NCBI GenBank assembly: GCA_016874775.1
Contig: VGTJ01000002.1
Span: 8,700-72,699 of the forward strand
Length of the DNA: 64,000 nucleotides
Direction of reading: 5' to 3'
Source of the DNA: Deltaproteobacteria bacterium
Lineage (GTDB): Bacteria; Desulfobacterota; Binatia; Bin18
Made by a program: the position numbers and the translations under genes. The notes below the pieces were generated by a model. The model searched no databases. It was not told where the DNA came from and saw only the letters and a program-made list of their open reading frames with translations. Position 1 is the first letter of the stretch. Every line of letters starts with the position of its first letter. Positions 23,319-60,327 of this stretch are shown piece by piece.

Positions 23319-24215
23319 ATGGATCAGCCAACGACAACTCTCGCCATTCTCTTTGCCGATATCAGTGGAAGTACCCGCCTGTATGAGACCTTGGGTGACG
23401 CACTCGCGCGGCAGAAGGTTGCGGATTGTTTATCGGTGCTCAGCGAAGCGATTCAGCAACGTGGAGGTACAGTCATCAAAACTATCGGTGACGAAGTGAT
23501 GAGTACATTTCCCAGTGCTGAAGTTGCGGTCCAGGCGGCCTGTGCGATGCAGGAATCGTTGGCCGAACGTGCGGCCTTGAGTAAAAGCCCGCTCACCATT
23601 CGGGTGGGTTTACATTATGGCCCAGCTTTGGTCGAAGCAGCGGATGTTTTTGGCGATGCCGTCAACCTGGCTGCCCGTATCGTCGGCCTGGCAAAAGCGA
23701 ATCAGATTCTTACTTCCCGTCAAACTGTCGACACACTCCCCACCTCGCTGCAAACCATGACACGACATGTCGACCGTGCCCCGCTCAAGGGAAAACAAGA
23801 AGCCGTTGATATTTATGAAGTCATCTGGCGTGAGGATGAACTCACCCGCATGGAAGGGCCTAGCCTTGCTCCACTTCCCACAGCACATTCCGCGCGATTA
23901 CGCCTGAGCTTTGGTGAGCAAGCGGTAGAAGTTACCCCATCTCGTCCGTCGGTTTCTATCGGCCGCGGACAAGAGAATGACCTCGTGATCGCTGATGAAT
24001 TCGCCTCACGGCTGCATGCGCGGGTCGAGTTGCGTCGTGGAAAATTCGTCCTTCTCGACCAAAGCACCAATGGGACTTTCGTCATCATTCAGAACGAAAA
24101 GCCGTTGCACCTCCACCGCGAAGAACTGCTCCTGCAGGGAACAGGAGTCATCAGCCTTGGTCGCCCGTTGGATGGAAATCCGCCAACCCTGATTCATTTC
24201 GTCTGCGAACCATAA
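23319..24215 (+). CDS. class III adenylyl/guanylyl cyclase (CHD) fused to a C-terminal FHA domain
   Basis: TLAILFADISGSTRLYE...GGTVIKTIGDEVMSTF is the cyclase homology domain. The C-terminal VSIGRGQENDLVIADEFASRLHARVELRRGKFVLLDQSTNGTFV is a canonical FHA domain, with the GR...SR.H...NGT pattern. Confidence 0.85.
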   Translation: MDQPTTTLAILFADISGSTRLYETLGDALARQKVADCLSVLSEAIQQRGGTVIKTIGDEVMSTFPSAEVAVQAACAMQESLAERAALSKSPLTIRVGLHYGPALVEAADVFGDAVNLAARIVGLAKANQILTSRQTVDTLPTSLQTMTRHVDRAPLKGKQEAVDIYEVIWREDELTRMEGPSLAPLPTAHSARLRLSFGEQAVEVTPSRPSVSIGRGQENDLVIADEFASRLHARVELRRGKFVLLDQSTNGTFVIIQNEKPLHLHREELLLQGTGVISLGRPLDGNPPTLIHFVCEP

Positions 24216-24526: not shown

Positions 24527-25360
24527 ATGCACGACAGTGAGCAGCTTACCCGGCTGCGCGAAAAGGCCCAACACATCCGTCGGTCGATCATCGAAATGTT
24601 GGCTGCTGCCGGCTCAGGCCACCCAGGAGGGAGCCTCTCGGCGACTGACCTTGTTACCTGCTTGTACTTCCAGGTCATGCGCCATAGGCCGACCGATCCC
24701 ACGTGGCAGGATCGCGACCGCTTCATTCTCTCGAAAGGTCATGCCTGTCCGGTGTTGTACGCCGCGCTGGCCGAAGCCGGATACATTACCCCAGATCTAT
24801 TAACCTCGTTGCGGCGCTTTGGCAGCCCACTCCAAGGGCATCCTGACCGGCGCAAATTTGGCCTTATGGAGGCCTCGACGGGATCGCTGGGCATCGGCCT
24901 CTCACTCGGTGTGGGGATGGCTCTTGCCGCTCGTCTGCGTAACAGCCCTTCTCGCATCTACGTCATGCTTGGCGACGGAGAGTGCGAAGAAGGGCAAATT
25001 TGGGAAGCGGCGATGTGGGCAGCGCATCAGAAGCTCGACAATCTCTGCGCTATCGTCGATTACAACCGCCTGCAGCTCGATGCCAGCGTCGAGGAAATTA
25101 CTAGCCTCGAACCATTGGCCGAGAAATGGCGTGCTTTTCAATGGAACGTGCAGGAAATCGACGGGCACAATTACGAACACATCCTCAGCGCCTTTACACA
25201 TGCCGAACAGACCAAAGGGAAACCTACAGTTTTGGTTGCCACTACGGTGAAGGGAAAAGGCGTGTCATACATGGAGAACCAGATCAAGTTTCACGGCAGT
25301 GTCCCCGAAAAAGCTGAACAAATCCAGCAAGCCTTGCAAGAAATCACCACCGGGAGATAA
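24527..25360 (+). CDS. tktA-N: transketolase, N-terminal (TPP-binding) subunit of a split transketolase
   Basis: GHPGGSLS, the GDGE TPP-binding motif (LGDGECEEGQIWEA) and the 277-aa length point to the split transketolase N-terminal section. AAGGAG RBS is present. Confidence 0.9.
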   Translation: MHDSEQLTRLREKAQHIRRSIIEMLAAAGSGHPGGSLSATDLVTCLYFQVMRHRPTDPTWQDRDRFILSKGHACPVLYAALAEAGYITPDLLTSLRRFGSPLQGHPDRRKFGLMEASTGSLGIGLSLGVGMALAARLRNSPSRIYVMLGDGECEEGQIWEAAMWAAHQKLDNLCAIVDYNRLQLDASVEEITSLEPLAEKWRAFQWNVQEIDGHNYEHILSAFTHAEQTKGKPTVLVATTVKGKGVSYMENQIKFHGSVPEKAEQIQQALQEITTGR

Positions 25361-25365
25361 GCGCC

Positions 25366-26355
25366 ATGATCAAACGCTGGCCGACACAATGGGAACTGGG
25401 GATGGCGACACGCGAGGCATACGGTCACGCGTTAGCACAATTGGGAGAAGAGAATTCTAAAGTTGTGGTCCTTGATGCTGACCTGTCGAAGTCGACTTTC
25501 ACTTCGCTGTTTGGCAAAAAATTTCCGGCGCGCTTTTTTGATGTGGGGATCGCCGAGGCCAATATGTGTTCTATCGCCGCCGGACTCGCCTCTGACGGCT
25601 TTATTCCGTTCGCTTCGAGTTTTGCCTCGTTCCTCTTATGCAAAGGCTATGAACAACTCCGTATCTGTTGCTCGTACATGGAAATGAATGTCAATTTCGT
25701 TGGCTCACACGGTGGAATCAGCTTAGGGGAAGATGGCCCATCGCAGCAGTCGATCGAAGATATTGCGCTGGCGTGCAGCCTCCCAGGCTTCACGGTTGCC
25801 ATGCCCGCGGACGAGGTGGCCACACGCGAATTGGTCCAAGCCGCGGCTGCCCATTACGGTCCGGTCTACCTTCGTGTCAGCCGCCCACGCGCGCCCAAAA
25901 TTTATCCTGCCGGAGAACGGTTTGCTTTCGGTCGTGCCAAAACACTCTCAGATGGTGACGACGTCACTGTCATCGCCAATGGCCTGATGGTTGCCCTGGC
26001 GTGCCAGGCAGCAGAATTAGCGGAACGCAAAGGCATTCACACGCGGGTGATCGATCTCCATACGGCGAAGCCGTTGGACGAAGCGACGATCGAGATTGCC
26101 GCGCGTGATACCGGAGCGTTAGTCGTAGTTGAAGAGCACTTAAGCCGCCCAGGGCTAGGCTCGCTTGTCGCTCAAGTAGTCGTCAATCGCTGTCCAGTCC
26201 CGATGGAGTTTGTTGGTTTGCCCGACAGTTTTGCCGAGTCTGGCACCCCGCAAGAACTTTTCCGCGCCTATGGTCTGACAGTTGAACATGTGCTGGGCGC
26301 TATCCAACAGGTTGTTCGGCGCAAAGACAAACGTCAAGTAGCCTCAGCTCGTTAG
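25366..26355 (+). CDS. tktA-C: transketolase, C-terminal (pyrimidine-binding) subunit
   Basis: Immediately downstream of the N-terminal subunit gene. It carries the Transket_pyr domain and the C-terminal domain, 329 aa. Confidence 0.9.
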   Translation: MIKRWPTQWELGMATREAYGHALAQLGEENSKVVVLDADLSKSTFTSLFGKKFPARFFDVGIAEANMCSIAAGLASDGFIPFASSFASFLLCKGYEQLRICCSYMEMNVNFVGSHGGISLGEDGPSQQSIEDIALACSLPGFTVAMPADEVATRELVQAAAAHYGPVYLRVSRPRAPKIYPAGERFAFGRAKTLSDGDDVTVIANGLMVALACQAAELAERKGIHTRVIDLHTAKPLDEATIEIAARDTGALVVVEEHLSRPGLGSLVAQVVVNRCPVPMEFVGLPDSFAESGTPQELFRAYGLTVEHVLGAIQQVVRRKDKRQVASAR

Positions 26356-26369
26356 AAGGGGAAGCCACG

Positions 26370-29240
26370 ATGGCAAACCAAATATTCGATCTCCGCCAGT
26401 ATGGTCAAAGTGTGTGGTATGACTTTATCAGTCGCCAACTCCTCGCATCTGGCGAGTTATTACGCATCATCAACCGAGACGGCGTCTCCGGCGTCACCTC
26501 AAACCCCAGTATTCTTGAACAGGCGATCAACAAAACCGATGCCTACGACGAGGAAATGGCCATCCTCGCTCGTCATGGTTTGTCTGCTGAAGACATTTAT
26601 ACGCGTGTCGCCGTGCAAGATATTACCGAAGCTGCAGATATTCTGCAGACTGTCTCTGTCGCGACCAATGGCGGCGATGGCTATGTCAGTCTCGAAGTTT
26701 CTCCACGTTTAGCTGATGATGCCGAGGGAACGATCGCCGAAGCGCATCGCCTGTGGCAACAGATCCGACGCGATAACGTGATGATCAAAGTCCCTGGTAC
26801 GCCAGCCGGATTTCGCGCGGTACGCAAACTCATCAGCGACGGCATCAACGTCAACATCACCCTCCTCTTCTCGATCGCCGACTATGAAGCTGCTGCGCAG
26901 GCATATATTGGTGGACTCTCTGACCGTTTGAATAAAGGCGGAGACATCAGTCGTGTCGCCTCAGTCGCGAGCGTCTTCGTGAGCCGGATTGACTCTCTCG
27001 TCGACAAACTCCTCGATCAAGCGCTGGCTACCACCCGTGACAGCGAAGCACGCCAAGGCATCGAAAACTTGAAAGGCAAGGCCGCCATCGCCAATTCCAA
27101 ATTGGTGTATCAGCGCTTCAAAGCGCTCTTCTCTAGCAGTGAGTGGCAAAGACTAGAAGAGCACGGAGCCCGTCGCCAGCGTCCACTGTGGGCTTCCACT
27201 GGCACGAAAAATCCCAAATATAGCGACGTCCTCTACATCGAAGAACTTGTCGGCCCGGACACGGTGAATACGGTTCCTCCTGGTGCACTTGCGGCGTTTC
27301 GCGATCATGGCCGTGCGCGCCCCACGATCGAACTCAACACGCAAGAGGCACAAAATGCGTTTGATCGCCTTGGCGAATTGGGTGTCGACATGACCAAGGT
27401 CCACGGGCAACTCAAAGAGGAAGGGCTCCAAGCTTTCGCTGATTCGTTTGACACCCTTCTTTTAGGAGTCGATACCAAACGCAAAGCCGCACTGTTGAAA
27501 GGCCGCTATCAGATTGCTGGCGCCAAATTGGGTGACGCGCTCGACCGCTACAATATCGACCTGCAACTCCAAGACTATGTCGAAGGCATGTGGAGCAAAC
27601 GCGCGGAACTGTGGTCAGACGATCCGACGGAACAAAAACGGATCGCGAATCGCTTAGGGTGGTTGGATTCACCTGAAGTGATGGCAAAAGCGCTCCCGCG
27701 GCTGAAGCGCTTTGCTGCCGCTGTCCGTCATGACGGTATCAAACACGTGGTCCTGCTTGGCATGGGGGGCTCAAGCCTCGCCCCAGAGGTGATGCGGGCG
27801 ATCCTCGGGGTGCAGCCTGGGGCTCCAACGTTCACGATGCTTGACTCGACTGACCCTGGATCCATCAAGGCAATTACTGATCGCATATCACTGAAAGAGA
27901 CGATCTTCCTCATTGCCAGTAAGTCCGGCACAACGATCGAACCCAACACTTTGTCGGCCTACTTCTGCCAGCTGTTGAAAAACGCCGGGATTGCGAATCC
28001 TGCTCGTCACCTCGTCGCGATTACCGACGAAGGAACTGCACTCCATGAACAGGCGCAACACGATCATTATCGCGAGATCTTCGTGAACCCGTCAGACATT
28101 GGTGGCCGCTATTCCGCTCTATCTTTCTTTGGATTCGTGCCAGCCGCACTCATGGGGATTGATTTGGTCGACCTCCTGGCCTGGGGGCGGGGAATGGCAC
28201 TCTTATGTGGTCCAACCAACGCCATCGCCCAGAACCCTGGCGTCGCCTTAGGTATCGCAATGGGTGCGGCTGCCCGTACTGGCCGCGATAAGTTGACGCT
28301 CGTTACTGGCCCACATCTGCGTCCATTTGGCTTGTGGATTGAACAGCTTATCGCTGAGTCCACGGGGAAAAAGGGGACAGGCATTGTTCCCATTGTTGGT
28401 GAGCCACTCGGACTGCCAGAGGTGTATGGAGGCGATCGGTTGTTTGTCCGCTTGCGACTCCATGGCGGCGATCCTGAAGAACATGATCGAGACGGCAAAA
28501 TGGAGCGACTGCGAGCAGCGGGGTTTCCCATTATCACGATCAGTATGCATGCTCCTGCCGCAATTGGTGCAGAGTTCGTACGTTGGGAGATCGCCACCGC
28601 TACCGCCGGTGCCATCTTGGATATCAACCCGTTCGATGAACCAAATGTTCAACAAGCAAAAGATGCGACAAAAGCGTTGTTGCGACGATTCACCACCGAG
28701 GGAAAGCTCCCTGTTCCCACACCCCAGGTACCAATACACGGCACCTCGTTGACCTGTGATCAGGCCAGTTGGGAAAAGATCAAAGCCAGTGGTAACGATG
28801 TGTCTCGCCCTCTCAGTGCGCTGGCAGAGTTTCTGCGCACGGTGGAGAAAGGCGATTACCTCGGACTGCTTGCCTATCTGCCAGTCAACGACAAGATTGA
28901 AGCATCATTGCAGCGTGTCCGTAGCCAACTGCGCGACCTGTGCCGTGTAGCAACGATGGGCGGTTACGGCCCTCGCTATCTCCATTCAACCGGCCAGTTA
29001 CACAAAGGTGGTCCGAATAGTGGTGTGTTTATCGTGCTTACAGCAACACCGCAGGAAGACCTGGCCATTCCAGGTGAGCCCTTCTCCTTTGCCACTTTGG
29101 AATTGGCGCAGGCACTAGGCGATGTTGCTTCACTTGAAGCGACCGGGCGACGGGTGGTGCATGTGCACCTCGACTCCCCAGACCCAGGACACGTTGAGCG
29201 AGTGTGCGATCTCATAGCAGGAGCGGCGGCAAAACAGTGA
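26370..29240 (+). CDS. tal-pgi: bifunctional transaldolase / glucose-6-phosphate isomerase fusion
   Basis: The N-terminal ~370 aa are a transaldolase TIM barrel (NPSILEQAI..., active-site Lys region). The C-terminal ~580 aa are a PGI SIS-domain fold (VVLLGMGGSSLAPEV, ...GGRYSALS...). Confidence 0.85.
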   Translation: MANQIFDLRQYGQSVWYDFISRQLLASGELLRIINRDGVSGVTSNPSILEQAINKTDAYDEEMAILARHGLSAEDIYTRVAVQDITEAADILQTVSVATNGGDGYVSLEVSPRLADDAEGTIAEAHRLWQQIRRDNVMIKVPGTPAGFRAVRKLISDGINVNITLLFSIADYEAAAQAYIGGLSDRLNKGGDISRVASVASVFVSRIDSLVDKLLDQALATTRDSEARQGIENLKGKAAIANSKLVYQRFKALFSSSEWQRLEEHGARRQRPLWASTGTKNPKYSDVLYIEELVGPDTVNTVPPGALAAFRDHGRARPTIELNTQEAQNAFDRLGELGVDMTKVHGQLKEEGLQAFADSFDTLLLGVDTKRKAALLKGRYQIAGAKLGDALDRYNIDLQLQDYVEGMWSKRAELWSDDPTEQKRIANRLGWLDSPEVMAKALPRLKRFAAAVRHDGIKHVVLLGMGGSSLAPEVMRAILGVQPGAPTFTMLDSTDPGSIKAITDRISLKETIFLIASKSGTTIEPNTLSAYFCQLLKNAGIANPARHLVAITDEGTALHEQAQHDHYREIFVNPSDIGGRYSALSFFGFVPAALMGIDLVDLLAWGRGMALLCGPTNAIAQNPGVALGIAMGAAARTGRDKLTLVTGPHLRPFGLWIEQLIAESTGKKGTGIVPIVGEPLGLPEVYGGDRLFVRLRLHGGDPEEHDRDGKMERLRAAGFPIITISMHAPAAIGAEFVRWEIATATAGAILDINPFDEPNVQQAKDATKALLRRFTTEGKLPVPTPQVPIHGTSLTCDQASWEKIKASGNDVSRPLSALAEFLRTVEKGDYLGLLAYLPVNDKIEASLQRVRSQLRDLCRVATMGGYGPRYLHSTGQLHKGGPNSGVFIVLTATPQEDLAIPGEPFSFATLELAQALGDVASLEATGRRVVHVHLDSPDPGHVERVCDLIAGAAAKQ

Positions 29241-29374
29241 AGCATTGAGAATGCACGATGAAGATGATGAACATTGCAAATGGCACGCGACAAAATCTCA
29301 CATGCGGTTATCTATATTCTTCATTTGGCATTCTCCATTCTTAATTCATAAATTTTTTAATGAGGAGGCATCAT

Positions 29375-30271
29375 ATGCAATTAGGATTCATTGGCTTGGG
29401 ACGTATGGGTGGCAACATGGTTCGGCGTTTATTGCAAGGTGGGCATCAAATCATTGCCTACAATCGTAGCCCAGAACCAACTCGTGAAGTGGAAAAACTC
29501 GGGGCTACGGCTGCTTTCTCGATTGAAGAGCTAGTCAAAAAGCTTCCCGCCCCTCGGACCGTATGGGTCATGGTCCCGTCAGGAAAGGCGACGACTGACA
29601 ACATCAATACCTTGGCAGGCCTTCTCAGCGCTGGAGACACAGTCATTGAAGGTGGCAATTCTCATTACAAAGATGACGTAGCCAACGCAGCCATGCTGAA
29701 GCAAAAAGGTATTCATTATCTTGATGCCGGTACCAGCGGCGGTATTTGGGGACTCAAAATCGGTTACTGCATGATGGTTGGCGGTGACCGCGAAGTGTTC
29801 AACAAACATGAGCCCATTTTCAAAACGCTTGCACCGGAGAACGGCTACGGCTACATGGGCGGACACGGCTCTGGCCACTACGTCAAGATGATTCACAACG
29901 GCATCGAGTATGGCATGATGCAAGCGTACGCCGAAGGGTTCGAGCTGATGCAAAAAAGCGATTTTAAACTCGACCTCCCCTTCATCGCCAATATGTGGAT
30001 GCAGGGCAGCGTTGTTCGTTCGTGGCTCTTGGACCTCGCCGCCAGTGCCTTGAGTAAAGATCCACAACTGGCAAAGATTCAAGGCTACGTCGAGGATTCA
30101 GGCGAAGGTCGATGGACAATTCTTGACGCGATCGAGAAAGATGTTCCGGCCCCTGTGATTACCCAATCCTTGTACACCCGTTTTCGTTCGCGACAGGCGG
30201 AGTCGTTTGGCGAGAAGGTACTCGCGGCGTTACGTAATGAGTTTGGTGGGCATGCGGTGAAGGCGAAGTAA
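29375..30271 (+). CDS. gnd: 6-phosphogluconate dehydrogenase (decarboxylating), short-form Gnd
   Basis: MQLGFIGLGRMGGNMVRRLL is the NAD(P)-binding Rossmann N-terminus. The 6PGD C-terminal domain follows. GAGGAGG RBS sits 6-7 nt upstream of this ATG. Confidence 0.85.
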   Translation: MQLGFIGLGRMGGNMVRRLLQGGHQIIAYNRSPEPTREVEKLGATAAFSIEELVKKLPAPRTVWVMVPSGKATTDNINTLAGLLSAGDTVIEGGNSHYKDDVANAAMLKQKGIHYLDAGTSGGIWGLKIGYCMMVGGDREVFNKHEPIFKTLAPENGYGYMGGHGSGHYVKMIHNGIEYGMMQAYAEGFELMQKSDFKLDLPFIANMWMQGSVVRSWLLDLAASALSKDPQLAKIQGYVEDSGEGRWTILDAIEKDVPAPVITQSLYTRFRSRQAESFGEKVLAALRNEFGGHAVKAK

Positions 30272-30304
30272 ACACGTCCGTCTTCGCTCTGGCAATAGCA
30301 GAGA

Positions 30305-30412
30305 ACTGGCACCCCAGAATTGTCCCCCTGAACGAGGTGAAGGGTCTCTCCTAGAGAATTCTTCACTCCGCTCAGAATGACAATGGCGAATAGGTACCGC
30401 GGAAGGTGTACG
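30305..30412 (+). repeat. copy A of a ~110-bp conserved intergenic element with an internal hairpin, upstream of zwf; copy B is at 53806-53914
   Basis: ACTGGCACcccaGAATTgtcCCCCTGAACgAgGTGAAGGGTCTCTCctAGAGAaTTCTTCaCtcCGCTCAGAATGACA...AAGGTGTACG aligns at about 80% identity with 53806-53914. The GAAGGGTCTCTC...GAGA(A)TTCTTC hairpin is conserved in both copies. It uses G-U wobble pairs that only work as plus-strand RNA. Confidence 0.5.
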
Positions 30413-30428
30413 AATTTTGTGACGTCTG

Positions 30429-30460
30429 GTATTGGGAGGTGCCGAGGCACCTCCCAATAC
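30429..30460. promoter_or_regulatory. perfect 14-bp inverted repeat (hairpin or operator-like palindrome) in the zwf 5' region
   Basis: GTATTGGGAGGTGC-cgag-GCACCTCCCAATAC has a 14-bp perfect stem and a 4-nt loop, with no U-tract after it. It lies 52 nt upstream of the zwf start. Confidence 0.4.
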
Positions 30461-30511
30461 GCGGCGCCCGGGATACCGTGCTCCGACATGTAAATCATAA
30501 GAGGACATACT

Positions 30512-32113
30512 ATGGACAGCGCAGGCGAAGTCAAAACATCGGTCACAGGAAACCGCGACACAGGAGTTGAGGTAGGAGACGAGGTCTTTCGCGCCAAAGA
30601 TCCTGTTACCATTGTCATCTTTGGTGCGTCTGGCGATCTCAGTAAGCGCAAGCTCATCCCTGCGCTCTATCAGTTGCAAAGGGCCGGGTACCTGCCAGAG
30701 CGATACGCCGTAGTCGGTTTCTCACGTACCTCGATGAGCGATGAAGCCTATCGCGAAAACATGCGTACTGCGTTGCAAGAACAACTGGCAAGTGAAGGGC
30801 ATACTGTCACTGCCGACAACCAACTCGTGCAAGCGTTGCACTATCACCCAGGTAGTAACGATGATCTGGCTTCGTTCAAAGCGTTGAAAGAAAAACTCGA
30901 ACAGCTCGATCGGGAGCGGAATCTGCCTGGAAACAGGCTGTTTTATCTCTCGGTTTCACCAGAGTTTTTTACCGTCATTATTCAGAACCTGTGCGCTGCA
31001 GGCTTGATTTGTGGACGCCAAGATAAGACGTGGTCGCGCGTGATTATCGAAAAGCCGTTCGGTAGAGACCTCACCAGTGCCCGGCAATTGAATACGGATG
31101 TCACCGCACTCCTCGACGAGAGTCAAATTTACCGTATCGACCATTACCTCGGCAAAGAGACGGTACAGAATATTTTGAGCTTCCGTTTTGGCAACTCGAT
31201 TTTCGAGCCGCTGTTCAACCAAAAATATGTCGACAACGTGCAGATCACTGTCGCCGAAACCCTCGGCATGGAAGGCCGACGTGGTGCGTACTATGACACC
31301 TCTGGAGCGATGCGTGACCTGGTGCAGAACCACATGCTGCAATTACTGTGTCTCCTCGCCATGGAGCCACCAGCCGCACTCGAAGCACGTGCCATTCGTG
31401 ATGAGAAAGTAAAAGTGCTGCGTGCCATACTCCCACTCTCGCGCAAAGAGGTCGCGGCCAATACAGTGCGTGGTCAGTACGGTGTCGGAGAAAACAACGG
31501 CACGATTGTCAAAGGGTATCGACAAGAAGAAGGCGTGAATCCGAAGTCCATCACCGAAACCTATGTTGCTATGCGTCTGAAGATCGACAACTGGCGCTGG
31601 GCCGGTGTCCCGTTTTTGTTGCGCACGGGCAAACGCTTGCACAAGCGCGTGTCGGAAATCGCGGTAGAATTTAAACATCCCCCGCTCCATTTGTTTGGCC
31701 AACTCGAAAACAATGGCAACGAAGATGTCTCCCGGTCAAAATCGAATGTGCTGGTTCTGCGGATTCAGCCTGACGAAGGCATCAATCTCTCATTCGCCTG
31801 CAAACAGCCAGGAATGCGTATTCATCTTGAAGATGTCCACATGGATTTCTTCTATAACAAAGTATTCCAGCAACGCTCACCCGAAGCCTACGAACGGCTC
31901 TTACTCGATGCGTTGCGTGGTGACGCCTCGTTGTTCACGCGTTCGGATGAAGTCGAGTATGCCTGGCGCGTTATCTCATCAATTCATGATGGCTGGGCAA
32001 ATCTTCCTTCCCCGACTTTTCCCAACTATTACCCATTTACCGATGGGCCGGATGAAGCGCAGAAGTTATTCGACGGGACACAAGCACAGTGGCGATCGAT
32101 TCGTGACATGTAG
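30512..32113 (+). CDS. zwf: glucose-6-phosphate 1-dehydrogenase
   Basis: VIFGASGDLSKRKLIPALYQL..., RIDHYLGKE and the EKPFG motif are all present. The length is 533 aa. Confidence 0.9.
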   Translation: MDSAGEVKTSVTGNRDTGVEVGDEVFRAKDPVTIVIFGASGDLSKRKLIPALYQLQRAGYLPERYAVVGFSRTSMSDEAYRENMRTALQEQLASEGHTVTADNQLVQALHYHPGSNDDLASFKALKEKLEQLDRERNLPGNRLFYLSVSPEFFTVIIQNLCAAGLICGRQDKTWSRVIIEKPFGRDLTSARQLNTDVTALLDESQIYRIDHYLGKETVQNILSFRFGNSIFEPLFNQKYVDNVQITVAETLGMEGRRGAYYDTSGAMRDLVQNHMLQLLCLLAMEPPAALEARAIRDEKVKVLRAILPLSRKEVAANTVRGQYGVGENNGTIVKGYRQEEGVNPKSITETYVAMRLKIDNWRWAGVPFLLRTGKRLHKRVSEIAVEFKHPPLHLFGQLENNGNEDVSRSKSNVLVLRIQPDEGINLSFACKQPGMRIHLEDVHMDFFYNKVFQQRSPEAYERLLLDALRGDASLFTRSDEVEYAWRVISSIHDGWANLPSPTFPNYYPFTDGPDEAQKLFDGTQAQWRSIRDM

Positions 32114-32145
32114 ATCATGCACAGGGAGAGAGCAACGAGGCACGC

Positions 32146-33144
32146 ATGGCACAGTATATATTGGCTGGTGATATTGGTGGTACCAAGACGAACCTGGCGA
32201 TCTACGCAGTCGAGCGACCTGCGCACGTTACCCTTGTCCGCGAGTCCTCCTTTTCCAGTCGACAACACGATGGATTGGAATCAGTGCTGGGTGAGTTCCT
32301 CAAGGAAGGCCGAGAACACGTCTCCGCCGCTGCCTTTGGTATAGCCGGGCCGGTGCTCGATGGCGTCGTGTTGGCCACGAACCTGCCGTGGAAGGTAGAA
32401 ACTGACCGCATTGCCAAAGCACTCGATTGTTCGCGCATTCAGCTGATGAATGATCTGGAAACAACGGCCTATGGGTCGCTGTTCCTTCCACCCCAGGAAA
32501 TCCAGATTCTCCACGAAGGGAAAACACGCAACGGTCACCGCGTCGTCATAGCGGCCGGGACCGGTCTGGGGCAAGCGTTCTTGATGTGGGATGGTACCCG
32601 CTATCGGCCAATTGCCACCGAAGGAGGCCATGCCGATTTTGCTCCTCGGACAGAAAAAGAAGTCGAGTTACTCCATTTTCTCAGAAGGAGTTACCCGCAC
32701 GTATCGTACGAGCGTCTCCTGTCAGGCCCTGGGCTCGTCAATATCTTCAACTTTCTCGATCAGCATTTGCATCAGCCCGTCGCTCCTATCGTTCGCCAAC
32801 GTCTGGTCAACGAGGACCCAGCTGCAGTCATCGGCCAGGCAGGCGTCGAGGATCTCTGCTCGACGTGCGCCGAGGCAGTCGACATTTTTTTTGGCGTGTA
32901 TGGTGCCCAGGCTGGCAATCTCGCACTGACAATCATGGGGCTCGGCGGTGTGTACATAGGTGGTGGCATCATTGTAAAGCTGCTTGCGAAAGCTATCTCC
33001 GGCGCGTTTATGGATGCTTACCTGGCAAAGGGACGTTACGCCTCGTTCATGGCTGACATTCCCGTACGGATCATTCTTAATGCCAAGGCCTCACAGTTTG
33101 GTGCCGCCCATGCTGCTCGCGAATTATTAGCTGAGAACCACTAG
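32146..33144 (+). CDS. glk: glucokinase
   Basis: [20 protein letters not shown] is the ROK/glucokinase N-terminal ATP-binding motif. The 332-aa length and the location next to zwf support the call. Confidence 0.85.
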
Positions 33145-33160
33145 AACGGAACCGCTACAC

Positions 33161-35872
33161 ATGGCCAAACGAGCGAAGGCTCCACGAAAAACAGTCACTG
33201 TAGAAGCCAAACGGCTTGCCGAAGACGCCCGAGGCAAAGCGTCCTGGAAACGTTGGGGACCGTATGTCAGCGAACGGGCCTGGGGCACGGTTCGTGAAGA
33301 CTACAGCCCCTACGGTACAGCCTGGGATTACTTTCCTCATGATCATGCGCGATCTCGCGCGTACCGCTGGGGGGAAGATGGCCTCGCCGGAATTTGCGAT
33401 CGGTACCAACTGTTAGTGTTTGCGCTCGCACTGTGGAATAGGAAAGATCCTATTCTCAAAGAGCGGGCGTTTGGCCTGGTCCCGACTGAAGGAAATCATG
33501 GCGAGGACGTGAAAGAGTACTTCTTCTATCTCGACTCTACCCCTACGCACTCGTACATGAAGTACCTCTACAAGTATCCGCACGCGACGTATCCCTACGT
33601 GCAACTGATAGAGGAAAATCAGCGACGACAAGGAACTGGGGAGACTGAATACGAACTCCTCGATACCGGCATCTTCGACGAGAACCGTTACTTCGATGTC
33701 TTTGTTGAATATGCCAAAGCTGGACCAGACGACCTGTGCATTCGCATTGAGGTGTGCAACCGCGGCCCAGAAGCAGCACCGGTTCATATTATCCCACAAC
33801 TCTGGTTCCGTAATCGCTGGGCCTGGGACCCCACGGCAAAGCCCGAACCTGTGATTGAGGTCGGCCCGCGTGGGAAAAACTTCCTGAGCCTTCGCGCCAA
33901 TGACTCTGCTGCTGAACCACTCACCAACTTGTTGACGTCCTATCAGCTCGGGCCACGGTATTTGTATGGCGAAGCTGGGGCCCAACTGCTGTTCACCAAC
34001 AATGAGACCAATGCAGAACGGGTGTGGGGTCCACAGGTGCAATCCCGTAGCCCGTATGTCAAAGATGCCTTTCATCGCCATATCATCAACGGTGAAGATT
34101 GTCTCAACCCTAAGCAAATTGGTACCAAAGCCGGGTTCCACTATGCAAACCTCACTGTTCCTGCTCATGGGTCAGTGGTGGTCCGCCTCCGTTTAACGGA
34201 TACGAAACTTGCGAGTCCGCTTGCTGAAGTGGACACCATTGTCAAAGAGCGGAAAAAAGAAGCTGATGCCTTTTACCGCTCGATTCATCCTGAGAACGCC
34301 ACTGAAGATGAATGTCTGATTCAACGCCAGGCCCTCGCCGGCATGCTGTGGAACAAGCAGAGTTATTTATATGATGTGAACGTGTGGCTGCACGGTGACA
34401 ACCCGCAATGGCCACCCCCAGAATCACGCCACCACATTCGGAACGTCCACTGGCGACATTTGAATTCACAGCGCATCTTGTCCGTGCCAGACAAATGGGA
34501 ATTTCCTTGGTTCGCCGCCTGGGATCTCGCGTTTCATTGCCTCCCGCTGGCCCTCGTTGATCCTGCATTTGCCAAGGAACAACTCTGGTTGTTACTCTTC
34601 GAGCAGTTTCAACACCCGAACGGGCAGATCCCTGCGTACGAATGGGAATTCTCTGACTTAAACCCTCCAGTCCAAGCATGGGCAGTGTGGCGGGTGTACA
34701 ACATGGACCGTGTCCGCTCCGGCAGTGCCGACCGCCAGTTTTTAGAGCAGTGTTGTCACAAATTGTTGTTGAACTTCACCTGGTGGGTCAATAAAGTCGA
34801 TAGTGAAGGGAATAACGTATTCGAGGGTGGCTTTCTCGGCTTGGACAACATCACCGTGATCGACCGCAGCCATGAGAAACCCCACGGCGCCAAGCTCGAA
34901 CAATCTGACGCAACCGGCTGGATGGGCATGTTCTGTCTCAATATGATGCGTATTGCCTTGGAATTGGCCAAAGAGAACAAAACCTACGAGGCCTTAGCCA
35001 CGAAATTCTTCGAGCACTACGTCTATATCGGCGCGGCGATGAAGAACATGGGGAGCCGCGACTACCAGCTCTGGGATGAAAAAGACGGATTCTTTTACGA
35101 CGTCTTACGTTACCCGAACGGTGAGTTTCACAAATTCCGCGTGCGTTCCCTGGTGGGGTTGATTCCTTTATATGCGATTGAACGCCTCGAAGAAGAGTGG
35201 ATTGTGCCCTTCGCAGATTTCCGTGCCAACCTGCACTGGTTTTTACGCAATCGCCAAGATTTAGTGCAACAGTGTGTCACGACCGTACAACAGGACGGGC
35301 AACAGGTTCATGTTCTCGCCATCATGAATCCTGAGCAGATCCGCCAGCTCCTGCAGCGAGTATGGGATCCACAGGAGTTTCGCTCGCCGTTTGGGGTTCG
35401 TAGCCTTTCCAGGTATCACGAGCAGCATCCGTTTACCTTCGGCAACGACGGAGTGGAGTATGAGCCCGGCGAATCCCGAGCCATGCATAAAGGCGGGAAC
35501 TCGAATTGGCGCGGACCGGTCTGGTTGCCAACGACGTTTCTCCTGATCGAATCCTTGCGCAAACTTCGGAAAGCCTACGGGGCTGCATTGACGATTGCTG
35601 ACCCTACAAATCCTGCCAAGCAAGTCACTCTCGATGAGTTAGCACGTGGGCTTGCCAATGGTCAGATCAATTTGTTTACTCGCAATGAACGCGGGGAACG
35701 TCCAGTCCACGGGGCAGCTCAGAAGTTTCGTGATGACCTCTACTGGCGTGATTGTCTGCTCTTTTACGAACATTTCCATGCTGATACCGGGCGGGGCCTC
35801 GGCGCCTCTCATCAAACCGGCTGGACCGGTCTGGTAGCTTCATTGATTGATGAATGGAGACGAGACGAATAA
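33161..35872 (+). CDS. GH63-like (alpha/alpha)6-barrel glycoside hydrolase, MGH/YgjK-like glucosidase family
   Basis: The protein is 903 aa. The N-terminal [21 protein letters not shown] motif and the large acidic catalytic-barrel C-terminal half resemble bacterial GH63 and mannosylglycerate-hydrolase-like enzymes. The assignment is from memory of the family and not from a database hit. Confidence 0.55.
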
Positions 35873-35917
35873 ACGCGGCTGTGAAGTCTACAGCCTATGG
35901 CTTACTTTTTATAACCT

Positions 35918-36673
35918 ATGACAAACCTTCACATATACCAGGATACCCAAGAGTTATATTCCGAAGCCGCGGCCCTGTTCACACGCTTGGCGAACGAGGC
36001 CATTGCCAGCCAAGGACGCTTTACGGTCGCCTTCTCTGGAGGATCCACTCCCAAAAGCGTCTACACTTTGCTTGCTCACGGTAATCCTCGCATGCAACCG
36101 ATCGCCTGGCCCTACGTGCATGTGTTCTGGGGTGACGAACGTTGTGTGCCACCAACGCATCAAGATAGCAACTATCACATGGCAAACGAGGCGTTACTCG
36201 CGCACGTTCCTATTCCCCCGGAGAATATCCATCGCATTCAGGCAGAACTGGAGCCGCTTGAGGCAGCCTATAACTACGAGCGAAAACTCCGAGAGGTATT
36301 TTCACTGCCATCCGACGGCACCCCGTGCTTTGACCTCGCACTCCTCGGGATGGGGCCTGACGGCCACACCGCGTCCCTCTTTCCTGGAACAAGTGGCTTA
36401 CAGGAAAAAACCCGCCTCGCCGTCGCCCATTACGTCGAAAAACTCTCAAGCTGGCGTGTCACACTCACGGCAAAAGTCTTCAATGCTGCTGCGCACGTCG
36501 CTTTTCTCGTTGCCGGAGCAGATAAAGCACTGACGTTAAAAGAAGTGCTCGAAGGTCCGTTTCAACCCGACCGCCTTCCTTCACAACTGATTCAACCCGC
36601 ACCGGAAAGCCTCCAGTGGTTGGTGGAGGCAACGGCAGCAAGCGGTCTCACACACCGCCCCAGCGACACGTGA
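35918..36673 (+). CDS. pgl: 6-phosphogluconolactonase
   Basis: FSGGSTPKSVYTLLA..., the ...ALLGMGPDGHTASLFPG motif and the ~250-aa length match NagB/Pgl-family lactonases. The gene sits within the zwf/gnd cluster. Confidence 0.8.
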   Translation: MTNLHIYQDTQELYSEAAALFTRLANEAIASQGRFTVAFSGGSTPKSVYTLLAHGNPRMQPIAWPYVHVFWGDERCVPPTHQDSNYHMANEALLAHVPIPPENIHRIQAELEPLEAAYNYERKLREVFSLPSDGTPCFDLALLGMGPDGHTASLFPGTSGLQEKTRLAVAHYVEKLSSWRVTLTAKVFNAAAHVAFLVAGADKALTLKEVLEGPFQPDRLPSQLIQPAPESLQWLVEATAASGLTHRPSDT

Positions 36674-36721
36674 CACGTACCATGCAGCACAACACACACA
36701 TCACAAGTAAGTGAGGAACCT

Positions 36722-37492
36722 ATGCCTAGTAATTATGTCATCGATATGGACGGGGTGATTTATCTTGGTAACGAACTCATTCCCGGCGCAAAGCACTTTA
36801 TTGACCGCCTCACGAAGGGAAACCATCGGTTTCTTTTTCTCACCAACAGTTCAAATCTGACGCCGCCGGACTTACAGCGCAAACTCAGCAAAATGGGAAT
36901 CGAGGTCAGCGAACATCATTTTTTCACCTCAGCCATGGCCACCGCTGATTTCCTCAACAACCAGTTGCCCAATGGCCGTGCGTTCATCATCGGCGGAGAA
37001 GGGCTACGCGAAGCGCTCCTCGCCGTAGGATACACAATTACCGAAGATCGCCCCGACTACGTCATCGTCGGCACCACCCGGACATATGACTATGACCGCA
37101 TGGAAAAAGCTGTAGCTCTCGTTCGTGGTGGAGCACGGCTTATCGGGACCAATCCCGATGTCACTGGCCCATCTGATCATGGAATTATTCCAGCGTGCGG
37201 CGCATTGGTTGCACCTATTCAGCTCGTGACCGGAGCCCATCCCTATTTTGTCGGTAAGCCAAATCCGTTGATGATGCGCACAGCCCTGCGTCGGTTACGT
37301 GCGCATTCAGGAGATACCTTTATGGTTGGGGATCGTATGGATACGGATGTCATCGCTGGCACTGAAGCGGGTATGCGTACGATTCTCGTGTTATCCGGCG
37401 TCACCAGACGTGAAGACATCTCCACGTATGCCTTCCGTCCGCATTATGTGTTCGATACAGCTGGTGATATTCCAGTTGATGAGCTAAATTAA
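36722..37492 (+). CDS. HAD-IIA family sugar-phosphate phosphatase (NagD-like)
   Basis: VIDMDGVIY is the DxDG motif I. FLTNSS (motif II) and the C-terminal GDRMDTDVIAG (motif IV) are present. Confidence 0.8.
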   Translation: MPSNYVIDMDGVIYLGNELIPGAKHFIDRLTKGNHRFLFLTNSSNLTPPDLQRKLSKMGIEVSEHHFFTSAMATADFLNNQLPNGRAFIIGGEGLREALLAVGYTITEDRPDYVIVGTTRTYDYDRMEKAVALVRGGARLIGTNPDVTGPSDHGIIPACGALVAPIQLVTGAHPYFVGKPNPLMMRTALRRLRAHSGDTFMVGDRMDTDVIAGTEAGMRTILVLSGVTRREDISTYAFRPHYVFDTAGDIPVDELN

Positions 37493-37601: not shown

Positions 37602-39170
37602 ATGCCATTTACTGAATCTGCTGGGCAGCATCGCCCGATATTTTATCATCCCTCTGGTGACACCGCGCGCCAGATTACCCTGAACGCGCGGGAAAAACTG
37701 GATTATTTTACCCGCCTGCCAATCTTTGGCGATGTGCTTGATGAACTTTTTGAAAAGATGCGTCCTGTCCTCATGCCTGACGGTAGCAAACAGCGACGTG
37801 ACATTTACGTCCGGGACGCGCTGGTTGAGAATGCCGATTTCTACGAAGTGCCAGCAGGGACGGTCATCTTTCAGGAGGGAAGCTTCGGCGAGCATCTCTT
37901 CATCGTCCTCAAAGGAACGGTACGCACCAACACCAGCGTCTCGTTAGATAACGAACGTAAAGCAATGGTTCCGCTCGAAGACCTCAAAGACGGGCACTTC
38001 TTTGGTGAGATGTCTGCGCTCTCCATGAATTCCCATCTCATCACGGCTGAGGCGGTGACGCCGACACTGTTGCTCCTGGTGCCGCAGTTTATCGTTCAAG
38101 AACTCGCAAAAACTCAAGATGCGTTCCGTGGCCCGATCATGCAAGAGTATGTACGACGAGCAGTGCTCACCCTGCTTCGTCGTATTCCGATGCTGCGTTT
38201 CACCTCCGACAACGACATCACACGTCTCCTAGAGAAAGTGGAGTTGAAGACGTTTGAAGCTGGCGACATCATCTTTGAAGAAGACGATCCACCAGACGAC
38301 TTGTATGTCATCCATCAAGGGTTCGTCAAAATCTCGAAGCGCGGCGAAGCCCGACAGCGCATTCTCAGCTATCTCAGTGAAGGCGATTGCTTCGGCGAAA
38401 TCGGCGTCCTGAACAATGCCCCACGCGCAGCAAGTGCGACAGCCATGAGCCGTACGGAGTTGCTGGTCGTGCCAGGTCCACAGTTCCAAATACTGGTCAA
38501 TGCCAACCCACAAGCGATCCAGGAAAGTCGCGGCGTTGCCAATCTACGTCGGTTAGATGCCGACATGGCACAAGACGTGACATTTATTGGTGCACGGTTG
38601 CAGTTCAAAGCCGAGGTGATGCCGAACCTGGATGTTCTCGCCATCGATGAAACCCTCTGCGTTCGTTGCGATAACTGCGTAAAGTCGTGTGCCGCCGCTC
38701 ACGATGATGGCATCTCTCGCCTTATTCGTAAGGGAACGATCTTTCAGGAGATGCTGTTACCCACAGCGTGTCGGTTCTGCCAGGATCCCGTGTGCCTCTT
38801 GTGCAAGTCAGGTGGTATCAAACGCGACAAAGACGGAGATATCTACTTCACCGATAGTTGTATTGGTTGCAGCGGGTGTGCGCAACGCTGCCCGTACGGC
38901 AACATTATTATGGTCGACATCGAAGAGTTGGAGCATTTGACACCACCGACCTTAGCGGATCAGCTTTTTCATATCGCTGCCCACAAACGCGGCGAAACCG
39001 TTGGGGCTGAGCAACGCCCACGGTTGAAAAAGGTGCCGGTCAAGTGTGACCTCGATAAGGGCCACCTCTTTCCCGCGTGTGTGAACAACTGCCCAACCCA
39101 AGCCATTCGGCGCTACCGGGCCGATGAACTTGACGTCATCATCACTGGACAACGTAACAAGAAGTCTTAA
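37602..39170 (+). CDS. tandem cyclic-nucleotide-binding (CAP-effector) domains fused to a C-terminal multi-[4Fe-4S] ferredoxin-like domain
   Basis: The first cNMP domain is ...FGEHLFIVLKGTV...GHFFGEMSAL...ITAEAV. The second is DIIFEEDD...GDCFGEIGVLNNAPRAASATA, carrying the FGE...R(S/A)A phosphate-binding cassette. Four Cys clusters follow: CVRCDNCVKSC, CRFCQDPVCLLC, CIGCSGCAQRCP and C...CVNNCP. Confidence 0.75.
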   Translation: MPFTESAGQHRPIFYHPSGDTARQITLNAREKLDYFTRLPIFGDVLDELFEKMRPVLMPDGSKQRRDIYVRDALVENADFYEVPAGTVIFQEGSFGEHLFIVLKGTVRTNTSVSLDNERKAMVPLEDLKDGHFFGEMSALSMNSHLITAEAVTPTLLLLVPQFIVQELAKTQDAFRGPIMQEYVRRAVLTLLRRIPMLRFTSDNDITRLLEKVELKTFEAGDIIFEEDDPPDDLYVIHQGFVKISKRGEARQRILSYLSEGDCFGEIGVLNNAPRAASATAMSRTELLVVPGPQFQILVNANPQAIQESRGVANLRRLDADMAQDVTFIGARLQFKAEVMPNLDVLAIDETLCVRCDNCVKSCAAAHDDGISRLIRKGTIFQEMLLPTACRFCQDPVCLLCKSGGIKRDKDGDIYFTDSCIGCSGCAQRCPYGNIIMVDIEELEHLTPPTLADQLFHIAAHKRGETVGAEQRPRLKKVPVKCDLDKGHLFPACVNNCPTQAIRRYRADELDVIITGQRNKKS

Positions 39171-51214: not shown

Positions 51215-52000
51215 TTAGCCAGCTACGGTTGGATCTTCAATGTACGACAGAATGATGATCGTACTGTTATCTCGGCCCCCACGTTCATTGGCGAGATTGA
51301 CCAGCGCATCACACGATTTTTCGAAATCTGGAGCGGTCTCGTTAATGATACGAAGCATGTCGCTATCTTCAACCACCCCATGAATCCCGTCACTACACAA
51401 GAGGTAAATATCTCCGGATTGGGGCCGTTCGAGCCGCACTGAAGGTTGGACAAGTGGACTCACCCCAACGGCTTGTGTCAACACATGACGGTGCGGAAAT
51501 GTCTTGACTTCTGTTGGTCCGATTTTGCCTTCACGGAGTAACTGCTGCACAAGCGAATGATCTTCCGTGAGGAGCTCAATCGTACCATCACGAACGCGAT
51601 AGACGCGAGAATCGCCAACATGACAAATCCCGGCAACGCTTTCGTGCTCATCAAACAAGACAGCAGCCACCGTTGTCCCCATGCCATTGAGGGCCGGGTC
51701 CTGCTGGCTCATCTCGAAAACTTTGTTATTTGCTCCCTGGATTGCGAGGAAAAGACGACGACCAGCGACCGACGACCAGCCATTCTCGGTTGTGATGGGC
51801 GTCAGATCTTCTCCCTCAGTTTCCTGGAGAACCCCATGCATCGTTTCTACAGCTAAGGCACTTGCGCGCTCTCCCCCGAGATGCCCCCCCATCCCATCCG
51901 CCACGATATAAAACGCCGCCTCGGGAAAGAATCCGGAGGAGTCCTCGTTTTTCACACGCACCTTACCCGTGTCGGTTTTAACTGCGCCACAGATGGACAC
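51215..52000 (-). CDS. PP2C-family Ser/Thr protein phosphatase
   Basis: It uses a GTG start with AAGGAG RBS. VKTDTGKVRVKNEDS...ADGMGGHLGGERAS is the PP2C metal-binding motif set. It ends 15 nt upstream of the kinase gene on the same strand, in the PstP-PknB-like arrangement. Confidence 0.85.
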   Translation of the reverse strand: MSICGAVKTDTGKVRVKNEDSSGFFPEAAFYIVADGMGGHLGGERASALAVETMHGVLQETEGEDLTPITTENGWSSVAGRRLFLAIQGANNKVFEMSQQDPALNGMGTTVAAVLFDEHESVAGICHVGDSRVYRVRDGTIELLTEDHSLVQQLLREGKIGPTEVKTFPHRHVLTQAVGVSPLVQPSVRLERPQSGDIYLLCSDGIHGVVEDSDMLRIINETAPDFEKSCDALVNLANERGGRDNSTIIILSYIEDPTVAG

Positions 52001-58686: not shown

Positions 58687-58894
58687 TTCGTTCGCCTCGT
58701 TTCATAAAATTCCATAAAAATTCTCAGAAGGGAAACCGAAAGCCACGAGACTTTTTGCACGCAGGATGATAGGAGCTGGAAGCGCTAGAGAAAAAGAGCT
58801 GTTGACCCTTGCATCACGGATTGTATTTGTGTGACAATCTTCCCCAGGGGGCTGCTCATCACTACCTGTCGTCGCTTCTGTGCAGCAATGGAAT

Positions 58895-60160: not shown

Positions 60161-60327
60161 TAAGCGCAAGAGTTCACGGAACACTTTCGACTCTTCATTC
60201 TCGACAACCACACTTCAGGCAATTCCCTGAGTGCTCCACAGGCCGAGTTGACCGACTTTACGACAGTTCACCACTTGTGCTACTCTACGTTGATCAGCGC
60301 ATCGGGTGGGTAGGAAGGACAACACGT

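Follow-up and report, generated by a model that had tools for sequence, protein, structure and literature searches.

When bacteria export electrons to the periplasm or the cell exterior, the quinone pool is usually regarded as the source and transcription as the level of control. Gene clusters of the ptd type look different, with an NAD(P)H dehydrogenase of their own and with signalling domains built into redox subunits. The described cluster, ptdABCDEFG, comes from marine and saline metagenome-assembled genomes (MAGs) and encodes a pentahaem cytochrome, a porin, an FAD/NAD(P) oxidoreductase, a tetrahaem cytochrome, a protein with cyclic nucleotide monophosphate (cNMP)-binding and 4Fe-4S regions, a ferric-reductase-like protein and a decahaem cytochrome (Elbon et al., 10.1101/2023.11.21.568154). 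The preprint describes the function as 'completely unknown', with extracellular electron transfer as a suggestion; it likens PtdC to flavohaemoprotein and does not discuss cyclases, FHA domains or kinases. A literature search found no follow-up work on the cluster. Here we analyse a stretch of 64,000 nucleotides from a Deltaproteobacteria bacterium MAG of the Binatia (assembly GCA_016874775.1, contig VGTJ01000002.1, positions 8,700 to 72,699 of the forward strand; hereafter the window), which encodes a class III cyclase with a C-terminal FHA domain and, downstream of it, a ptd-like cluster (Table 1).

Compared by description, the window cluster matches ptd, with counterparts of PtdE and PtdF and likely counterparts of PtdC, PtdG and the porin. 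A 522-aa protein has the architecture of PtdE, cNMP-binding domains with 4Fe-4S clusters, and the adjacent gene, like that of the ferric-reductase-like PtdF beside PtdE, encodes a membrane protein with four conserved His residues. The functions of PtdG and PtdC are fused in a 1330-aa protein (nine CXXCH motifs and one CX4CH), and a separate decahaem cytochrome is also encoded; the YpdA/TrxR-like domain of the fusion and the flavohaemoprotein-like PtdC may belong to different flavoprotein families. The likely counterpart of PtdB is a porin-like protein, and there is no pentahaem (PtdA) or tetrahaem (PtdD) open reading frame (ORF) within the window, which ends inside the cluster. Unlike ptd as described, the window cluster has three N-terminal FHA domains added to the 1330-aa fusion, one degenerate cNMP site and Asp for Cys in one Fe-S motif. 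It is also interrupted by a block containing a kinase and a PP2C-type phosphatase, and is preceded by a pentose-phosphate pathway (PPP) operon headed by the cyclase-FHA gene.

We consider that a regulated Ptd-like conduit is overall the best explanation of this locus, with a probability of about one half. The interest lies in this conduit and its Binatia variant and not in the cyclase-FHA protein alone.

The Ptd-like cluster and its conservation

The cluster begins with a cassette of three genes in which the cNMP/Fe-S gene is first, followed after 23 bp by the membrane-protein gene and after a further 20 bp by the gene for the 1330-aa flavocytochrome. This cassette is kept at 56-89% identity in the Binatia contigs L001, L002, L010, L011 and L097-L100. 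Statistics for Binatia below refer to 7 cassette loci and 7 cyclase loci, and counts out of 72 refer to genome loci other than the window among the matches listed from a profile scan, none of them from Binatia. A metagenome scan added only five close relatives, of which a single one had long context.

The 522-aa product of the first gene has cNMP_binding (PF00027) matches of 132 bits in two stretches and Fer4-family matches across residues 344-498. Residues 82-299 align over both cNMP domains of the regulatory (R) subunits of protein kinase A (PKA; yeast Bcy1, 3of1), and residues 340-518 align with the HycB-type four-cluster ferredoxins HycB3, HycB4 and HycB (7qv7, 7z0s). A previous sequence-only reading of the window had assigned two cNMP domains and 'about four' Fe-S clusters to this protein, which is borne out. 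There are 15 invariant Cys residues in four motifs (353/356/359/363, 390/393/398/401, 420/423/426/430 and 482/493/497), predicting [4Fe-4S] sites of which three are canonical and the fourth is not. In motif 4 the place of the second Cys is taken by Asp485 (window position ~39056), which is invariant in Binatia, whereas all distant relatives have Cys. The substitution suggests that the wire has at one of its ends either an Asp-ligated [4Fe-4S] cluster or one of the [3Fe-4S] type.

The 357-aa membrane protein gave no Pfam or NCBIfam match itself, and no NCBIfam model reaches threshold for any protein of the cluster. It has two pairs of His residues, His161/His175 in the third transmembrane helix (TM3) and His336/His350 in TM5, both with i/i+14 spacing. 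All four are invariant in six distant homologues, and across 83 sequences of the family, which has 1219 representatives, three are invariant and the fourth is present in at least 90%. Among these 83 relatives, only 33 match Pfam families of the dihaem cytochrome b/ferric-reductase-domain superfamily (Ni_hydr_CYTB 18, DUF4405 8 and Ferric_reduct 7). An AlphaFold2 (AF2) model (pLDDT 90.9) places both His pairs inside helices. Its homologue in L007 has 308 aa, and in L003 and L005 homologous membrane domains form the N-terminal part of multihaem cytochromes. We infer a dihaem cytochrome b related in kind to the ferric reductases and cytochrome b561.

The 1330-aa protein is a fusion. Its N-terminal part is cytoplasmic and contains three FHA domains (163.9 bits in three stretches), after which TM helices at 523-541 and 854-872 flank a periplasmic region with the ten haem-binding motifs (568-837). 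Residues 943-1001 form a ferredoxin domain of the 2x[4Fe-4S] type, and residues 1066-1323 an NAD(P)H flavoprotein domain that is YpdA/TrxR-like. The fused architecture is found in only 15 clusters, all from Binatia.

Three further genes of the cluster lie downstream. The stand-alone decahaem cytochrome is homologous to the one that follows the membrane gene in 52 loci. The HbpS/GlcG-like protein has homologues in 25 loci, and such proteins of the cluster (in the window, L002, L016, L021-L026 and others) often consist of 2-3 domain repeats. The protein encoded at the window end is the best conserved of the whole cluster, with 39-50% identity in 32 loci; Big_13 is its sole Pfam match, and sequence and profile searches found no relative in the PDB. 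All 28 of 28 full-length homologues have a terminal Tyr, Phe or Trp after the sequence YSVLxNxxLT. Such an ending is an outer-membrane beta-signal, and this protein is probably the outer-membrane beta-barrel ('porin') of the conduit. In L002 the counterparts of the HbpS-like and conserved proteins directly follow the cassette, and in L001 the homologue of the conserved protein does so; in both, a large multihaem cytochrome comes next. In the window the decahaem, HbpS-like and barrel genes are split from the cassette by the kinase and PP2C block.

Outside Binatia, many phyla have relatives of the cNMP/Fe-S protein at 27-35% identity whose functional context is the same but whose domains are combined in other orders. 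It can be seen from the 72 listed loci that the common form is an ~800-aa flavoprotein-cNMP-cNMP-Fe-S fusion (62/72), with the membrane gene next (65/72) and a ~600-aa decahaem cytochrome after that (51/72). An HbpS-like gene lies downstream in 24 of the 72, and further downstream there is often the conserved ~600-aa protein together with a decahaem cytochrome of 1200-1400 aa. Other orders are also found. L003, L005 and L014 have a flavoprotein with two or three FHA domains, then an Fe-S-cNMP-Fe-S protein, then a membrane protein with multihaem domain. In L007 a NuoE/F-like protein replaces the flavoprotein, giving the order NuoEF-like, NuoG-N+cNMP+Fe-S, membrane protein, decahaem. In L068 (Chloroflexia) flavoprotein, FHA, Fe-S, cNMP and Fe-S domains are on one chain. 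The penta-, tetra- and decahaem layout surrounds homologues 27-33% identical to the window cNMP/Fe-S protein in L033, L073 and L074. The conduit appears to be widespread and uncharacterised, its carriers being Sphingomonadales, many Gammaproteobacteria, Planctomycetota, Acidobacteriota and Binatia. Among cultured strains, the canonical cluster is present for example in Sphingopyxis indica DS15, Altererythrobacter lauratis KCTC 52606 and Sphingomonas colocasiae JCM 31229.

A different arrangement was seen in the delta-proteobacterial locus L093 (8708-14039), where the Fe-S domain is fused directly to the cytochrome-b-like membrane domain, cNMP domains are absent, and an 811-aa protein with 29 CXXCH motifs follows.

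Table 1. Features of the window. Positions are numbered from the first nucleotide of the 64,000-nucleotide stretch.
Feature	Position	Strand	Size and basis
Class III adenylate cyclase (predicted) with FHA domain	23319..24215	+	298 aa; Pfam, conserved residues
Pentose-phosphate operon	24527..37492	+	Pfam; between cyclase-FHA and cNMP/Fe-S genes
PtdE-like subunit, tandem cNMP domains and HycB-like four-cluster Fe-S domain	37602..39170	+	522 aa; Pfam, alignments
PtdF-like membrane protein, five TM helices, putative dihaem cytochrome b	39194..40267	+	357 aa; conserved His, AF2
Fusion of three FHA, multihaem c, ferredoxin and flavoprotein domains	40288..44280	+	1330 aa; Pfam, NCBIfam, topology, motifs
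Ser/Thr kinase	44930..51199	-	2089 aa; Pfam Pkinase 1.4e-50
PP2C-type Ser/Thr phosphatase	51215..52000	-	Pfam PP2C_2
PF13557 outer-membrane-like protein	52229-53794	-	In block 44422-58617
Stand-alone periplasmic decahaem cytochrome c, PtdG-like	58880..60160	+	10 CXXCH, N-terminal anchor or signal
HbpS/GlcG-like protein	60277..62022	+	Pfam HbpS-like; recurrent cluster member
Conserved cluster protein, continuing past the window end	62047..64000	+	Signal peptide, Ig-like domain, ~500-aa domain

Proposed cyclic nucleotide and phosphothreonine inputs

Cyclic nucleotide control of the cluster would depend on the tandem cNMP domains of the Fe-S subunit. The sequence-only reading held that the first of these, domain A, lacks the phosphate-binding Arg. 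The loss is real; the residue that aligns with the Arg of relatives is His145 and not, as had been proposed, Ile147 of the sequence ITAEA, and His is present at this position in 42/45 Binatia sequences. The R[ST]A rule that it applied to the phosphate-binding cassette was too narrow, since domain B (FGEIGVLNNAPRAASA) has a PKA-type cassette, FGE...PRAAS, which in relatives is FGE...PR[SA]A[ST]. Its Arg275 is present in 44/45 Binatia sequences. PRAA[ST] is the motif of PKA R subunits, and by its motif domain B is a credible site for cyclic AMP (cAMP).

The second type of input is phosphothreonine (pThr). The sequence-only reading had noted the FHA domain of the cyclase and had missed the three on the neighbouring 1330-aa protein, which tell more about an FHA link. 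The module, by which we mean the conduit genes as they recur across genomes, bears FHA domains at different positions in at least six lineages (Binatia, the L003, L005 and L014 types, L047 with a separate 2xFHA gene, and L068), and kinase genes are often near FHA-bearing modules. In all 10 dereplicated loci where the module bears FHA, one or both of the phosphate-binding Arg residues are gone, compared with 7/70 modules without FHA, the other 63/70 keeping both. The association has a Fisher p value of 1e-8 when counted by locus, the loci not being phylogenetically independent, and of 0.01 by a rough lineage count. These results suggest that one machine can take either cNMP or pThr as its input, with the Binatia version as a hybrid of the two.

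In L003/L004, L005/L006, L014 and L028 both cNMP-like domains lack the phosphate-binding Arg (E/Q or E/H at these positions). The flavoprotein carries 2-3 FHA domains in L003/L004, L005/L006 and L014, L028 has only an adjacent kinase gene, and kinases lie near most of these loci. In the types with both Arg residues lost, phosphothreonine control looks to have taken over completely from control by nucleotide.

A sequence motif is shared by the cyclase and the flavocytochrome. The pattern [DE][DE]xT[RK]-hydrophobic includes Thr176 in the linker of the cyclase and recurs in the inter-FHA linkers of the window flavocytochrome as DESTRI (121), DEATRV (302) and DEATRF (318). One to three copies are present in the FHA linkers of 14/18 flavocytochromes, and there is 1 match in 13,875 residues of unrelated window proteins. 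We propose Thr176, Thr124, Thr305 and Thr321 as candidate phospho-acceptor sites and FHA ligands. The FHA domains of the window are closest to OdhI/GarA and FhaB/FipA.

The kinase and phosphatase genes predicted by the sequence-only reading were both confirmed by Pfam. The kinase consists of a kinase domain (residues 12-271), ~1400 aa of Q/A/E/R-rich repeats, a TM helix at 1716-1734 and an extracytoplasmic tail of KAEQ-type repeats. It is syntenic only in L010, where the PP2C also has a 91% identical copy. Adjacency of the pair to the cassette is confined to the closest relatives (L010), and L001 and L002 lack the pair.

The kinase domain alone resembles kinases near modules in other phyla. 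Judged against L001 and L002, the block 44422-58617 seems to be an insertion that parts the cassette from the decahaem, HbpS-like and barrel genes. It contains a 165-aa ORF, the kinase, the PP2C, the PF13557 protein and three ORFs without clear families; ORF 56452-58617, within the block, has weak Dockerin and Matrixin matches.

The cyclase-FHA gene and its genomic association with the cluster

The sequence-only reading of the first gene in Table 1 as a class III cyclase with a C-terminal FHA domain was correct, the Pfam scores being 71.3 bits for Guanylate_cyc (PF00211; cut-off 21.9; residues 3-162) and 45.3 bits for FHA (PF00498; cut-off 20.7; residues 212-280). We aligned 110 full-length relatives to examine the catalytic residues, the absence of which would have undone this assignment. 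The metal-binding D14 and D58, which also align with Ma1120 and 3mr7, are conserved in 110/110, as are the transition-state residues N116 and R120, and the pair that specifies ATP is nearly so (K54 108/110, D109 109/110). Since all six catalytic residues are conserved, the protein is predicted to be an active adenylate cyclase. The pThr-binding residues of the FHA domain (G215, R216, S230, H233, N251 and G252) are invariant or nearly so in the same relatives. Thr176, which lies in the linker within EDELTRM, is present in 110/110, the linker motif of the relatives being W-x-E-[ED]-[DE]-[LV]-T-R-M. The nearest solved sequences are 3mr7, Ma1120 and Rv1900c (E 8e-18 to 1e-11).

On its own the cyclase-FHA protein is unremarkable, belonging to a large, already annotated and uncharacterised family with thousands of members in many phyla. 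A 100% identical entry from a Deltaproteobacteria bacterium MAG is named 'adenylate/guanylate cyclase domain-containing protein' in NCBI, and the closest named relatives are Candidatus Binatia. The best 120 matches all have the ~300-aa cyclase-FHA architecture and include Gammaproteobacteria and Entotheonella; a tblastn search of plasmids found a homologue on a Mesorhizobium plasmid (32% identity over 99% of the length). No characterised cyclase-FHA protein was found in a literature search. A scan of the window with hidden Markov models gave exactly one ORF with a cyclase domain and one with cNMP domains.

The genes between the cyclase and the cassette encode a split transketolase, a transaldolase-glucose-6-phosphate isomerase (PGI) fusion, 6-phosphogluconate dehydrogenase, glucose-6-phosphate dehydrogenase, glucokinase, and GH63-like, 6-phosphogluconolactonase-like and HAD hydrolase proteins. 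The cyclase-FHA gene directly precedes PPP genes in six of seven Binatia-like loci (the window, L009, L011, L012, L095 and L098), with a gap of 22-23 bp in L012 and L095. The sequence-only reading had asked whether the cyclase-FHA and cNMP/Fe-S architectures co-occur elsewhere, and they do so in four contigs of one Binatia clade (the window, L009/L010, L011 and L098), where the PPP operon runs on into the cassette in two arrangements, and also in the gammaproteobacterial MAG GCA_016191285.1, which has the cyclase-FHA gene (L013) and the module (L033) on separate contigs. L011 and L098 have a shorter operon without tkt, tal-pgi and GH63 in which the cyclase, PPP genes and cassette are still together, and hence the triad survived rearrangement. 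The L002 cassette and rpiA-tkt-tal are arranged head-to-head. A promoter and terminator scan around the cyclase gave nothing above shuffled expectation, and transcription units are therefore predicted from gene spacing.

Within 24527-29240 (+), the two halves of the transketolase are encoded at 24527-25360 (N-terminal) and 25366-26355 (C-terminal), and the transaldolase-PGI fusion (956 aa) of this region is also found in L009, L012 and L095. A cytidylyltransferase-like (NadD-like) gene (22251-23222, +) lies 96 bp upstream of the cyclase; it has this position in L009 too, and not in L011, L012 or L095.

A cyclase-domain ORF lies within the locus (up to 10 kb each side) in 8 of the 72 listed loci, a raw count without a proper background that is phylogenetically clustered. 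These cyclases are not orthologous to that of the window, five being of a CHASE2-cyclase type and one a GAF-PAS-cyclase. The recurrence of different cyclase types supports a general link from cyclase through cNMP to the module, and does not prove the window cyclase to be the particular partner, as we propose. Elsewhere the cyclase-FHA gene is found with phosphorylation genes and no module nearby: in L013 it is directly followed by a PP2C gene, and in L094 by genes for a PP2C and a kinase-cyclase-AAA-TPR protein. The latter protein (L094 12038-14650; 870 aa; Pkinase, zinc ribbon, Guanylate_cyc, AAA_16 and TPR) is a second coupling of kinase and cyclase in the same operon.

Proposed mechanism, alternatives and comparison with known systems

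Our model is that genes 37602-44280 and 58880-64000 encode a Ptd-like trans-envelope electron conduit. NADPH, supplied by the PPP operon, would reduce the FAD flavoprotein domain and then the ferredoxin domain and the four-cluster Fe-S subunit, from which electrons would pass to the inner-membrane dihaem cytochrome b, the periplasmic nine/ten-haem domain, the separate decahaem cytochrome and the outer-membrane barrel. This would be a logic like that of NADPH oxidase, ending in cytochromes c and not in O2. The cyclase, as a soluble enzyme of the homodimer class III type, would make cAMP, and cAMP at site B of the Fe-S subunit would gate electron flow by analogy with PKA R subunits, which release their partner. 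The C-terminal FHA domain may place the cyclase under Ser/Thr-kinase and PP2C control, by binding either a phosphorylated partner or its own phosphorylated Thr176 as in the GarA/OdhI switch. The three FHA domains of the flavocytochrome would be a pThr input to the same complex, with the kinase and PP2C setting the state of both proteins through their FHA domains. The fuller version, in which cAMP on the Fe-S wire and pThr on the flavocytochrome together switch an NADPH-fed conduit, the cyclase belongs to the same phospho-circuit through the shared motif, and cNMP and FHA inputs have been swapped across phyla with Binatia as the hybrid, is offered only tentatively.

Several observations weigh against the regulated conduit or against parts of it. 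The direction of electron flow is proposed by analogy and on thermodynamic grounds; on the latter, an inward flow from a periplasmic donor reducing NAD(P)+ is unlikely. The haem b assignment comes from sequence patterns, and a Foldseek search of the PDB found no solved structure similar to the membrane protein. cNMP domain A is degenerate, and binding of cAMP by domain B is a prediction from its motif. Within 10 kb of the cassette in L001 and L002, which are more distant Binatia, there is no gene for a cyclase, kinase or PP2C, and their flavocytochromes lack the shared Thr motif, which may itself be structural. The constant neighbour of the cyclase-FHA gene in Binatia is the PPP operon, synteny within a close clade could be simple inheritance, and the count of cyclases near modules has the limits given above. 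Finally, cyclase-FHA proteins extend far beyond the Binatia cassette and must therefore act on other targets as well.

Some of these points would be expected if the cyclase and cNMP/Fe-S genes were unrelated neighbours. The cyclase would then act elsewhere, for example on the PPP operon by way of a cAMP receptor encoded elsewhere, such as a CRP-type regulator, other cyclases would provide the cAMP or cGMP to which the cNMP site of the Fe-S subunit responds, and proximity would reflect inherited clade synteny. The close spacing of cyclase and PPP genes in Binatia-like loci is as this explanation predicts, as are the cassettes of L001 and L002 without a nearby cyclase, the many phyla with cyclase-FHA proteins and no Binatia-type cassette, and the L013 and L094 genes beside PP2C or kinase with no module. 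It accounts less well for a link that outlasts the rearrangement in L011 and L098, for the other cyclase architectures beside the module in other phyla, for the presence of both genes in GCA_016191285.1 and for the Thr motif common to cyclase and flavocytochrome, and we regard it as possible though doubtful. It is less probable still, and in our view unlikely, that the Binatia cNMP-like domains are purely structural or docking elements of a conduit regulated by pThr alone (through the three FHA domains, kinase and PP2C), with the cyclase acting elsewhere. The His in domain A would fit, as would the loss of at least one Arg in every FHA-bearing lineage and of both in L003, L005 and L014, which suggests that FHA input replaces cNMP. 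Domain B, however, retains FGE...PR[SA]A[ST] with Arg275 in all except one of the 45 sequences at 56-100% overall identity, indicating purifying selection.

The sequence-only reading had placed the cNMP/Fe-S protein at the end of a chain running from kinase to FHA-cyclase to cNMP, as a stand-alone redox/cNMP sensor with sensory Fe-S clusters. Fe-S sensors do exist, such as FNR, which has a CRP-family fold, and Asp485 makes one cluster site non-canonical. Nevertheless the Fe-S domain is an electron-transfer module of the HycB/HydN four-cluster type, the 522-aa protein has no output domain, its relatives are fused to an NAD(P)H flavoprotein in the great majority of the listed genomes (62/72), and a cytochrome b-like membrane protein and a decahaem almost always follow. 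A stand-alone sensor is accordingly very improbable, and the protein is better regarded as the Fe-S wire subunit of a conserved electron-transfer cluster. The chain as such remains plausible and has comparative support, its end point having been misread and the adjacency of kinase and PP2C being clade-specific. A transcription-factor-like sensor was also considered and rejected, as the protein lacks output domains, DNA-binding ones included, and in most cases forms a fusion with a flavoprotein.

If the regulated conduit is correct, with cAMP or pThr gating electron flow post-translationally, respiration would be controlled in a way that is new in kind. This would also open a route to the function of the ptd cluster and to its role in oxygen-deficient zones. 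The Binatia order of cyclase, NADPH-producing pathway, NADPH-consuming conduit and kinase/PP2C offers a compact set of proteins.

The proposed conduit shares its logic with NADPH oxidases and ferric reductases, including the bacterial two-component MsrQ-Fre system, in which cytoplasmic NAD(P)H reduces a flavin and then two b haems that serve an external acceptor. The His pairs on TM3 and TM5, ~13-14 residues apart, are common to both. In contrast to proteins with a ferric-reductase domain, the window membrane protein falls below every Pfam threshold and has 5 rather than 6 TM helices, with two large cytoplasmic helical inserts. The window system would also have an Fe-S wire between flavin and haem b, and its acceptor would be a multihaem cytochrome c and not O2, Fe(III) or MsrP. 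The wire subunit itself aligns with two known families and departs from each at one site, having His for Arg in site A of the PKA-like tandem and Asp for Cys in motif 4 of the HycB/HydN-like ferredoxin. We know of no characterised protein in which a PKA-R-like cNMP tandem and a four-cluster ferredoxin of this type are joined.

The phosphothreonine part of the model has a parallel in GarA, where the FHA domain binds in cis in a phosphorylation-dependent manner. As in the GarA/OdhI switch, the window proteins have a conserved Thr in an acidic context on a flexible segment beside an FHA domain, making cis binding possible; the motif is acidic-acidic-x-T-R-hydrophobic instead of ETTS, and the outputs would be a cyclase and a flavocytochrome. 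With other FHA-containing bacterial cyclases the window protein shares the presence of FHA and class III cyclase domains in one polypeptide. Relative to Synechocystis Cya1, which is reported to have an N-terminal FHA domain, the order is reversed, with the cyclase first and the FHA last in a compact protein of ~300 aa. Its catalytic domain is as short as those of 3mr7 and the minimal, IIIc-like class III enzymes Ma1120 and Rv1900c/LipJ and has the same six catalytic residues, but these have no FHA domain, and the window protein adds to this core the Thr176 linker and a C-terminal FHA domain.

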